Origin: an uncultured Actinomycetes bacterium
GTDB lineage: Bacteria > Actinomycetota > Thermoleophilia > UBA2241
Assembly (NCBI GenBank): GCA_963767005.1
Contig: CAVYCN010000012.1
Span: 64,001 to 128,000 of the forward strand
Direction: 5' to 3'
Length of the DNA stretch: 64,000 nt
The first letter of the stretch is position 1. Every line of letters starts with the position of its first letter. Of the stretch, positions 41,436 through 46,354 are shown piece after piece. Made by a program: the position numbers and the translations under genes. The notes under the pieces were generated by a model. It saw only the letters and a list, made by a program, of their open reading frames with translations, made no database searches and had not been told where the DNA came from.

Positions 41436-42677
41436 ATGTCCGCGCCCCGCTCAGACCCGCCGTCCGACCCGCAGCCGAGCTTCGGCCGCGACCTGTGGCT
41501 CTGCTTTCTGTCGAGCCTGCTCTTCTCGCTCGGTCTGGGCCTCTACTACCAGTTGCTGAACGTCTACGCGATCAGGCACCTGGGCGCGCCGCGCTTCATG
41601 ATCGGCGCGCTCGTGGCCCTGCAGCTCGGCACGACGGCCCTGAGCTACCTGCCGGGCGCATGGGCGACAGACCATCTGCGGCTCAAGGTCGTGATCGTCG
41701 CCGTATGGTGGCTGACCGTACCGGCGGCGCTCTGCTTCGCGCTCGCGCCGAGCTGGCCCTGGCTCATTCCCGGCTACGTGGTCACCGGCCTCTACTACGC
41801 CAACAACCCGGCGCTCAAGACCTACATCATGCTCAAGTCGGGGCCCGAGCGCATGGCCCGCAACATCTCGTACATCTTCGCGAGCTTCCCCATGGGCCTG
41901 GCGCTCGGACCGCTCGCCGGCGGCTGGCTCGCCGGGCGCTACGGCCTGCGGCCCGTGTTCCTGATCGCGGTGGCGTTCTACGTCGCCTCGTCGATCGTCG
42001 TGAGCCTGATCGCCGACCTCCCCTACCACGCCGCCGGGCAGCCCTGGAAGGTCGCCGACCTGCTCGAGAACCGCGTCTTTCGGCGCAACCTCGCGTTCTT
42101 TGGCTGCGGCTTCTTCACGGTGTACCTGGCCTGGCCGTTCGTGCAGCCGTACCTCGCCCAGGTCCACCACCTGAGCTACACCGCCCTCGGCGCGCTCGCC
42201 GCCGTCGGCGCCGTCGGCGGCAGCGTCGTGACCTTCGCCGCCGGCCGCGCCACCGATCTGCGCGGCCATCGCCAGGGCATCGGGATCACGATCGCCTGCC
42301 TCACGGTGGGGGCGGTGCTGCTGCTCGCCGGCTGGGGTCCGCCGGTCTGGGCGCTCGCCGTGTTCCTCTACGGCGCCTTCGACTCGTTCCGCTTCGTCAC
42401 GGCCGGCATCGTGAGCCACTCGTTCGGCACCGTGCCGCCGGTGTGGGGCTACGCGGTGTTCGACGCGAGCATGGGCGTGCCCACCGCCTGCGCCGCCCTC
42501 GCCGGCGGCGCGCTCTACCGCTCGTCGTACACCCTGCCCTTCTTCGTCGTCGCCGGCCTGGGCGGCGCCATGCTGCTCGCCCTCCTGCTGGCGGGGCGCG
42601 GCGACCGGGCGACCGTCGCGGTCGGCCTGCCGTCGCCGTCGTCTGCTAGGCTAGGGCCGACCAAGGAGACCTTATGA
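41436..42677 (+). CDS. MFS transporter
   Basis: About 12 TM; motif-A-like GAWATDHLRLK and GRATDLRGHR. Confidence 0.82.
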   Translation: MSAPRSDPPSDPQPSFGRDLWLCFLSSLLFSLGLGLYYQLLNVYAIRHLGAPRFMIGALVALQLGTTALSYLPGAWATDHLRLKVVIVAVWWLTVPAALCFALAPSWPWLIPGYVVTGLYYANNPALKTYIMLKSGPERMARNISYIFASFPMGLALGPLAGGWLAGRYGLRPVFLIAVAFYVASSIVVSLIADLPYHAAGQPWKVADLLENRVFRRNLAFFGCGFFTVYLAWPFVQPYLAQVHHLSYTALGALAAVGAVGGSVVTFAAGRATDLRGHRQGIGITIACLTVGAVLLLAGWGPPVWALAVFLYGAFDSFRFVTAGIVSHSFGTVPPVWGYAVFDASMGVPTACAALAGGALYRSSYTLPFFVVAGLGGAMLLALLLAGRGDRATVAVGLPSPSSARLGPTKETL

Positions 42678-43855
42678 CCGACGTCGCGGCCGACCACGAA
42701 CCCGTCACCAAGATCCTCATCGCCGACCTGCCCGAAGGGCGCGAAGTCACGACCTACTTCGTCGCCATCGACGTCGAGCCGGCCACCGACCGTAACGGCC
42801 GCTCGTTCCTGCGCATCAAGCTGCGCGACGCCTCGGGCGAGGTCAAGGCCATCCACTTCGACGCCGACGACCGCGTGGTCGAAGAGTTGCGCAGCGGCGA
42901 CGTCGTCAAGGTGAGCGGCACCTACTCGGTGCACGACAAGTATGGCGAGCAGTTCCAGGTCAAACGCCTGCGGGTCCTGCAGCCCGGCGAGTACGACATC
43001 GGCACGCTGGTGCCGGTCTCGCCGGTGCCGCTCGACGAGCTCGTGAGCCGCCTGAGCGCGCTCGTCGCCTCGGTGCGGAGCCCCTCGCTCCACGCCCTGC
43101 TCGCCCGCGCGCTCGACCCCGGGCACGAACCCGGCGCGACCTTCGCGATCGTGCCGGCGGCCGTGCGCAACCACCACGCCTACCGCCACGGCCTCCTCGA
43201 GCACTCGCTCATCGTCGCCGAGGTGGCCGGCGCGGTGGCCGACCGCTTCGCATCCGTCAACCGCGACCTCACCGTGACCGGCGCGCTGCTCCACGATATC
43301 GGCAAGGTGAGCTCGTACTCGGCCGACCCCATGGCGCCGGGCTTCACCGACGTCGGCCGGCTGCACGGCGAGATCGTGATCGGCCACGACCTCGTGCGCG
43401 GCCTCATCGAGCAGATCCCCGGTTTCCCCGACGAGCTGGCCACGCAGCTGCGCCACATCGTGATCTCGCACCACGGCGAGCGCGAGAAGGGCAGCCCCGT
43501 CAGCCCCGCCACCCGCGAAGCCGTCATCGTGCACTTCTGCGACGACATGACCGCCCGCCTGGCGGCCGTCGACGAGATCGCCGCCCGCACCTCCGGCGAC
43601 GCGCGCTGGTCGGCCTGGTGCAACATGCTGGCCGGTTACACCTACCTCGCGCCGGCCACCGACGAGCCGGACGAAGCCGCTACGGCCGCGGCCGTAGCGT
43701 CGGCGGCGGCCGATGTCACGGATCCACCGACTCCCGAGCCGGAGCCGGCCGCGGAGGCCGAGCCGGAGGCCGAGCCCGAGCCGGAGGCCGAGCCCGAGCC
43801 GGAGGCCGAGCCCGAGCCGGAGGCCGAGCCCGACACGGGCGCGGCGCTCTTCTAG
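42674..43855 (+). CDS. yhaM: OB-fold + HD-domain 3'-5' exoribonuclease (YhaM/Cbf1 family)
   Basis: LRDASGEV, NHHAYRHGLLEHS, LLHDIGK, SHHGEREKGSP. Confidence 0.88.
   Translation: MTDVAADHEPVTKILIADLPEGREVTTYFVAIDVEPATDRNGRSFLRIKLRDASGEVKAIHFDADDRVVEELRSGDVVKVSGTYSVHDKYGEQFQVKRLRVLQPGEYDIGTLVPVSPVPLDELVSRLSALVASVRSPSLHALLARALDPGHEPGATFAIVPAAVRNHHAYRHGLLEHSLIVAEVAGAVADRFASVNRDLTVTGALLHDIGKVSSYSADPMAPGFTDVGRLHGEIVIGHDLVRGLIEQIPGFPDELATQLRHIVISHHGEREKGSPVSPATREAVIVHFCDDMTARLAAVDEIAARTSGDARWSAWCNMLAGYTYLAPATDEPDEAATAAAVASAAADVTDPPTPEPEPAAEAEPEAEPEPEAEPEPEAEPEPEAEPDTGAALF
43760..43831 (+). repeat. 4 x 18-bp perfect tandem repeat (EPEAEP) in the YhaM tail
   Basis: GAGCCGGAGGCCGAGCCC x4. Confidence 0.9.
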
Positions 43856-45400: not shown

Positions 45401-45460
45401 CGTTTGTCCTTTCGTCTGTCGGGCCGGGCGGGCGGCTATGCCGCCCGCCCGCGCGCCGGG

Positions 45461-45910
45461 TCAGCCTCCCCAGATCTCCCCGGCGACCGCCAGCACCTCG
45501 GCGGCGTGACCCGCGGCCGAGACGTTCTCGAACACCCTGCGGACGGTGCCGTCGGGCTCGAGCAGAAAGGTCGTGCGCCGGGCCGACGGCTTGTCGGGCT
45601 TGTCGACCCCGAAGCCCAGGATCAGCGCGCGATCGGGGTCGCAGAGCAGCGGGAACCGCAGATCGTACTTCGTGGCGAAGCTCTGGTTCGCGTCCGGCTT
45701 GTCGACGCTTGCCCCGATCACCTGCACGCCGAGGGCCGCGAACTCTCCGAGCAGGCCGTTGAACTCAACGGCTTCCGTCGTTCAGCCCCCGGTGTTGGCC
45801 TTGGGAAAGAAGTAGAGGACGGTGCGGGCCCCCGGCGCTCCCAGGTCGAAGCTGCGTCCGTCGTGTGCTGTGCCGGTGACGGCCGGCGCCCTGTCGCCCT
45901 CTCTGAGCAT
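45461..45910 (-). CDS. bcp: Selenocysteine-containing peroxiredoxin (BCP/PrxQ family)
   Basis: LYFFPKANTGG-TGA-TTEA: the TGA (45782-45784) sits at the PxxxTxxC peroxidatic position and the frame continues to 45461. Confidence 0.9.
45755..45772 (-). promoter_or_regulatory. SECIS-like hairpin
   Basis: GCCGTTG-AGTT-CAACGGC after a 9-nt spacer 3' of the UGA. Confidence 0.7.
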
Positions 45911-46030
45911 CGTGCCCTCCGATCGCGGCCGGCCCCCGCCCATGCGGGCGACCTGTCGCCACCTTCGTACCCAGGGCACAGCTGCGCCTATCGTCGACGC
46001 CCGGCGTTGCCGCTGGCATAGACTCCGCGC

Positions 46031-46234: not shown

Positions 46235-46354
46235 GCGCGCGACGTAGTCACGCCTGCCTGAGCGGCGACGACGCAGTCGCTCGACGGCCTAGGCGCGCGA
46301 CGTAGTCACGCCTGCCTGAGCGGCGACGACGCAGTCGCTCGACGGCCTAGGCGC
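46231..46354. repeat. Perfect 58-bp tandem duplication between convergent genes
   Basis: 46231-46288 is identical to 46289-46346, followed by a partial third copy. Confidence 0.9.

Follow-up and report, generated by a model that had tools for sequence, protein, structure and literature searches.

The question raised by this locus is whether an in-frame TGA at the catalytic position of a small peroxiredoxin gene is a stop, as gene callers have treated it, or a codon for selenocysteine (Sec) within a complete enzyme. The gene occupies 45461-45910 on the minus strand of a 64,000-nucleotide stretch of DNA (the window) from the genome of an uncultured bacterium of the class Thermoleophilia (G000). 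It very likely encodes a 149-residue BCP/PrxQ peroxiredoxin that carries Sec at its catalytic site by way of UGA and a downstream hairpin and that would be recycled by an outside thiol. The minus-strand translation is a single frame. An ATG at 45910, with a GGAGG ribosome-binding site 5 nt before it (45916-45920 (-)), opens 42 codons starting MLREG and ending FPKANTGG; TGA follows as codon 43 (45782-45784 (-)), the predicted Sec codon, and then 106 codons run from TTEAVEF to EIWGG before a terminal TGA (45461-45463 (-)). The initial annotation had described a TGA exactly at the peroxidatic Cys position, a continuous BCP-like frame on both sides of it and a gene split by the ORF caller, and all three descriptions hold. 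For this gene the standard ORF list calls only an 88-aa C-terminal piece from a GTG at 45727 (45461-45727 (-)), which is without the PxxxTxxU active-site motif and whose GTG is not preceded by any GGAGG-like site within 33 nt. Public collections contain the same 88-aa piece (P0005), as well as 42-aa N-terminal pieces from relatives that end at ...TGG just before the TGA.

The genes nearby encode a metallo-beta-lactamase-fold protein, a ferredoxin and a fumarate-lyase-family or HD-domain protein, a neighborhood that is common within the host family (f1), not in a second family (f4), and that suggests no functional partner for the peroxiredoxin. The gap that separates the peroxiredoxin stop codon from the fumarate-lyase-family gene downstream contains a 12-bp G+C-rich inverted repeat (45425-45451 (-)), which has no U-tract and is possibly a terminator or a transcript-stabilizing hairpin. 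It was not picked up by a terminator scan, whose sole terminator-like match is inside the peroxiredoxin gene, and a promoter scan found nothing. Two other features of the window were seen in passing: a sequence of about 57 bp, recognized by eye, is repeated in tandem in nearly identical form between the ferredoxin and metallo-beta-lactamase-fold genes (two copies, 46235-46350), and 42674-43855 (+) encodes a protein that combines an OB fold with an HD domain and ends in a tail of EPEAEP repeats.

Family models and structural comparisons agree on the kind of protein encoded. Pfam AhpC-TSA (PF00578) matches with an E-value of 1.2e-29 and 103 bits against a cut-off of 26, and the best matches among 11 NCBIfam families, PrxQ (NF053650, 79.6 versus 260 bits) and PRK09437 (74.9 versus 140 bits), both fall below their cut-offs; we file the protein under the wider BCP/PrxQ subfamily and not under these two equivalogs. 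Its AlphaFold model, built from a 30-sequence alignment, has a pLDDT of 96.4. Structures of BCP/PrxQ proteins rank first in a Foldseek search (E about 1e-15), and BCP proteins come first when phmmer is run against solved structures. The Cys-containing structures, namely Xanthomonas campestris PrxQ (5iiz, 3gkm), the Burkholderia ambifaria protein 5enu and Sulfolobus Bcp1 (3drn), have the same catalytic set and superpose with TM-scores of 0.82-0.88 by query length at 31-38% identity; the protein here differs in having Sec for Cys, Ala79 for Xanthomonas C84 and Val48 for the second Cys of CxxxxC. The Pxxx(T/S)xx(C/U) motif is present as P36-x3-T40-x2-U43 together with the catalytic Arg, and an alignment of 30 proteins, in which U is written as C, shows no variation in any of the four columns P36, T40, U43 and R112. 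On these grounds the protein is a BCP/PrxQ peroxiredoxin, with thiol-dependent peroxidase activity as its predicted function. PrxU of Eubacterium acidaminophilum, reportedly an experimentally verified Sec-peroxiredoxin, likewise has Sec at the peroxidatic position and comes from a Gram-positive bacterium, but the gene here is of the small BCP/PrxQ type, and its product falls outside the PrxU family (model NF040737, 233 positions; 26.9 bits against a cut-off of 270). The genome also encodes a second, ordinary Cys peroxiredoxin of the AhpC type, with FTFVCPTE and GELCP motifs (contig C2, 593861-594190 (-)).

In regard to catalysis, the selenolate of U43, held by P36, T40 and R112, would reduce H2O2 or organic peroxides, as expected of the peroxiredoxin family, and would become a selenenic acid in doing so. 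The absence of a CxxxxC resolving Cys, noted at the outset, is confirmed by Val at position 48, and Ala occupies position 79, the counterpart in the alignment of Xanthomonas PrxQ C84, presumably the resolving cysteine of that enzyme. With V48, A79 and a C90 that is not conserved, the protein does not have the makeup of a 2-Cys BCP/PrxQ. Because neither tested position holds a resolving Cys, the Sec-peroxiredoxin would be expected to act as a 1-Cys BCP, with an external thiol restoring its reduced form. The donor is the least certain step: thioredoxin with thioredoxin reductase, or a glutaredoxin-like protein, seems most likely, and we would put thioredoxin first, with a chance about equal to that of the other routes together. 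The genome holds two clear thioredoxins and a weak third, one of them adjoining a thioredoxin reductase that scores over its cut-off, as well as five glutaredoxin-family hits. Both routes have precedent, since 1-Cys BCPs are described, in the available part of PMC8945050, as being reduced directly by Trx or by GSH/Grx. The Burkholderia cenocepacia enzyme of that study likewise has no resolving Cys, depends on an outside thiol and prefers GSH/Grx over Trx (PMC8945050, same part); in the protein studied here, selenium is the predicted catalytic atom. Mycothiol was rejected as the reductant, the best MshC score being 237 against a cut-off of 485 with one query. A further candidate reductant lies on contig C4 (270495-271658 (+)), where a glutaredoxin-family domain is close to a thioredoxin-reductase-like domain; both are in one open frame of 448 aa and so probably form one fused protein.

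Two other accounts of recycling deserve mention, and we consider each unlikely. C90, the single Cys of the Sec-peroxiredoxin and one passed over in the initial annotation, could be an internal resolving cysteine that forms a selenenylsulfide with U43, an idea favored by its being the only candidate in the protein and by the presence of Cys at this position in 14 of the 21 family orthologues. Across 90 TGA rows, however, the position is Cys in only 21 (Ser in 45, Gly in 10, Ala in 10), ten distinct near-full-length orthologues have no Cys anywhere in the aligned span, and C90 lies on strand 88-90 of the AlphaFold model, not at position 48 or 79. About as doubtful is the idea of a selenium-only peroxiredoxin clade that turns over without a cysteine of its own, possibly by non-thiol recycling, such as through a selenenylamide, or with the help of a paralogue. 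In some genera, an adjacent paralogue that has lost both Sec and the catalytic Arg could assist in such chemistry. Tandem paralogues beside the Sec-peroxiredoxin occur at L030, L035, L056, L062 and L068 (genomes G016 and G022 and three other records); in these copies Ser or Ala takes the place of Sec and the catalytic Arg is missing, and the five form one clade in a quick tree. At L034 (G014) the tandem copy retains the TGA and the hairpin, and in G000 no tandem copy stands beside the peroxiredoxin gene. Reduction of U43 by an outside thiol remains the account we prefer.

The case for Sec itself begins with the codon. TGA stands at codon 43 in 21 of 21 readable family orthologues (G000 and 20 relatives, 55-91% identity), and it is thus common to 20 independent assemblies of the same family. 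These 20 relatives are drawn from 24 members of f1 among the 40 relatives searched; one of the remaining four has an orthologue cut by a contig end before codon 43, and three have no close match. Elsewhere among the 40, the codon is TGA in three f4 genomes and TGC or TGT in five from other families. A larger sample of the class gave matches in 23 of 26 f1 genomes, all 23 with one TGA, and TGA in 19 of 23 matched f4 genomes, these being counts of TGA presence, with positions unchecked for the new rows. Among 116 aligned hits, which include loci fetched twice, the codon is TGA in 90, TGC or TGT in 21 and another codon in 5, and where a homologue is free of the stop the aligned residue is Cys, never Trp. 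Alignment with Cys-containing homologues had been proposed as a check in the initial annotation, and in it the in-frame UGA falls on the conserved Cys. Three proteins that show C at the Sec position (P0003, P0004 and P0009) were left out of the count of Cys homologues because their C may be a U converted to C.

Close relatives with the TGA form belong to Thermoleophilia, and the more distant ones are mostly Acidobacteriota, whose loci (L064-L132) mostly have TGA at the same codon, six of them with UxxxxC. The TGA form also goes together with the Sec machinery: selA was found in 22 of 23 relatives that have it, the exception being a genome only 51% complete, and six selA-negative genomes at least 97% complete have no TGA in any listed hit. 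Because the relatives are kin, this co-occurrence is a pattern and not a statistical test. A quick tree of 109 rows, from which we excluded duplicates, short rows and those with multiple stops, needed seven changes for Sec and six for Cys with long branches meeting, so we claim no direction, donor or order of events.

The hairpin that the initial annotation had placed just downstream of the TGA, with a 7-bp stem and a G in the loop, is the predicted SECIS GCCGUUG-AGUU-CAACGGC at 45755-45772 (-), with its 4-nt loop AGUU at 45762-45765; it fits the bacterial model and is conserved in relatives. The bSECIS model, as given in the available text of PMC13188914, has a loop of 3-9 nt, a stem of 4-16 bp, a distance of 16-37 nt from UGA, a G in the first two loop positions and an MFE of at most -7.5 kcal/mol. 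Compared by hand with these constraints, our hairpin has a loop of 4 nt that begins 16 nt after the UGA, a stem of 7 bp and a G at loop position 2, then U. It appears in both the MFE and the centroid structures, and the 47 nt after the UGA fold with -15.7 kcal/mol. We reject folding energy as proof of a SECIS, because in four windows from this 71% G+C genome it is no better than that of shuffles (z from +0.27 to -0.44); the case therefore rests on conservation. For orientation, a hairpin with at least 7 Watson-Crick pairs, the same spacing and a loop G follows 568 of 68,011 TGA triplets in the genome (0.84%).

The strongest evidence for the SECIS is that synonymous sites within it are frozen. 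Its Val codon is GTT in all 21 orthologues, compared with 1.5% genome-wide, and its Glu codon is GAA in 20 of 21, compared with 10.3%, while the flanking codons vary. In 34 actinobacterial rows out of 73 distinct TGA rows, 96.2% of 238 stem cells are paired, compared with 18-61% in slid controls; the 39 other rows, mostly from Acidobacteriota, are outside this count and by eye seem paired two positions further out, with a bulge at acidobacterial loci among L064-L132. Stem changes consist of C-G to G-C in 8 of the 34 rows and U-A to C-G in one. Those eight compensatory rows are one clade in the tree and so probably represent a single inherited event, and 53 of 500 shuffles reached the observed number of pairs with a change on both sides. 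Under a loose stem test (at least 6 pairs and a loop G), 76 of 78 TGA rows pass, versus 9 of 21 Cys rows. L066, a Cys-type member that groups within the Sec members from Acidobacteriota, has GAA instead of GAG at the codon from which the loop G comes.

These results bear directly on whether the TGA is simply a true stop, through pseudogene formation or sequencing error, with the 88-aa C-terminal piece as the most that could be made. Some observations lean that way: the assembly has stray stops, such as a TAG in an ABC substrate-binding gene that is missing from orthologues, the peroxiredoxin gene is frameshifted in three relatives (L038, L039 and L040), and the GTG at 45727 could start the fragment. 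We nevertheless regard a true stop as highly improbable, since the same codon is TGA in every readable family orthologue and in distant Acidobacteriota, the reading frame is conserved on either side, the 88-aa fragment has neither the active-site motif nor a GGAGG-like site upstream, and the synonymous sites of the hairpin are frozen. Of the 19 sequencing runs listed for this material, none is an RNA run. Contigs, as distinct from raw reads, of four of these runs show no difference at 45782-45784 among 40 of 149 rows, a comparison that we do not count as evidence.

The genome is equipped to decode Sec. On contig C4, at 372-376 kb, selD, selA and selB lie in a row, each above its family cut-off: SelD at 351 bits with an in-frame TGA of its own at codon 16, SelA at 428.8 bits and SelB at 320.5 bits with a C-terminal match in the same frame. 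A 98-nt tRNA-Sec with a UCA anticodon (Rfam 68.1 bits versus 47) lies 13 kb beyond the sel genes. The initial annotation had proposed a search for selA, selB, selC and selD, whose absence would have told against Sec; all are present, and its suggestion that this actinobacterial-type organism decodes Sec is very likely right. The gene for the formate dehydrogenase alpha subunit (contig C19, 850 bits versus 666) also has an in-frame TGA, and predicted hairpins follow both this one and that of selD. The peroxiredoxin, selD and fdhA are the supported selenoproteins and represent a minimum, as our genome-wide hunts by coding score and motif lacked sensitivity: selD escaped all three, and fdhA one of them. 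TGA is otherwise the commonest stop, which excludes genome-wide UGA reassignment. A UGA read as some other residue, either Trp by genome-wide reassignment, as noted for Eggerthellaceae of the same phylum in the available part of PMC13462651, or Cys via a suppressor-type tRNA, is scarcely credible when TGA ends 934 of 1,480 clearly coding ORFs (63%), the peroxiredoxin gene included, the only UCA-anticodon tRNA among 50 ARAGORN calls is tRNA-Sec, stop-free homologues have Cys and never Trp, and selA and selD are intact.

Thus the conserved codon, the conserved SECIS, the presence of selA, selB, selD and tRNA-Sec, and the use of TGA otherwise as the main stop make Sec insertion at codon 43 very likely. 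By the established bacterial pathway, in which SelB binds the SECIS and brings Sec-tRNA to the UGA (PMC9312934, in the text available), SelB loaded with Sec-tRNA would bind the hairpin loop and deliver Sec at codon 43.

The gene belongs, as a quite ordinary member, to a selenoprotein family already known, to which it adds the Thermoleophilia lineage. The available portions of PMC9312934 and PMC13188914 list "Peroxiredoxin (Prx)", COG1225 Bcp, with TxxU, as a selenoprotein family, and PMC5029168, similarly limited, counts 91 members in 78 organisms. The family described in these sources and in PMC1794560 shares its domain (PF00578) and PxxxTxxU motif with the gene studied here, and its SECIS follows the UGA directly within the coding sequence, as in the Thermoleophilia gene; the host lineage is what differs. 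A literature search at the level of titles and abstracts found nothing on Sec in Thermoleophilia, and supplements or BSepDB may list members.

The initial annotation had held Sec decoding to be uncommon in the phylum, and our counts do not support this: selA is present in 135 of 201 Actinomycetota genomes over many families, or 131 of 197 when four unpublished genomes, all positive, are set aside, in a survey that counted selA alone and was unweighted by species number. Among the class relatives, 32 of 40 have selA. Symbiobacterium, once placed in the Actinobacteria, is now classified outside that phylum. It is the richest example in the phylum given by PMC1794560, the available part of which names Actinobacteria among the selenoprotein-rich phyla and credits Rubrobacter xylanophilus with five selenoproteins. 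With uncultured families included in the sample, our survey points to Sec machinery as a common feature of Actinomycetota families.

The same genome has a complete system for a second rare amino acid, pyrrolysine, consisting of pylSc, pylSn, tRNA-Pyl(CUA), pylB, pylC and pylD (contig C3, 236183-246500; L050). We found pylSc in 23 of 24 family relatives and in 1 of 16 other genomes of the class, and selA in 22 of the same 24 family relatives; it thus appears that nearly all members of the host family encode 22 amino acids. In G000, MtbB-like and MttB-like motifs contain at least nine in-frame TAG codons (contig C18 at 36346, 96682 and 102308 (-); C6 at 54765 and 53360 (-); C3 at 158114 (+); C4 at 256092 (-) and 146370 (+); C18 at 34861 (-)), and judging by these motifs we take the genes to be methylamine methyltransferases. 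We rejected a broad recoding of TAG to pyrrolysine, as TAG ends 33% of coding ORFs, and the single non-methyltransferase TAG candidate that was checked is not conserved. The in-frame TAG of the ABC substrate-binding gene (contig C13, 18131 (+); L135, 1632-1634) probably reflects either a nonsense change confined to this strain or an error in sequencing, since orthologues at 84% and 79% identity are without the stop. A pylSc match in the 51% complete genome G021 (contig C9, 10153-10875 (-)) has one in-frame TAG, which could be an error or self-regulation. Our literature search for pyrrolysine with Thermoleophilia found nothing on topic; PylRS is reported from two Actinobacteria in the available part of PMC9630628.

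The finding is chiefly an annotation correction for the peroxiredoxin gene, with a reach beyond one genome: because gene callers yield fragments of 42 aa and 88-113 aa across a whole uncultured family of Thermoleophilia, the enzyme has been missed there. It also provides a compact SECIS with natural controls, in the form of Cys members and a degenerate paralogue. How a Sec-BCP is recycled without a resolving cysteine is a small question that this protein could address, and a selenium-only clade, if real, would be a compact system in which to examine "one-Sec" peroxiredoxin chemistry.
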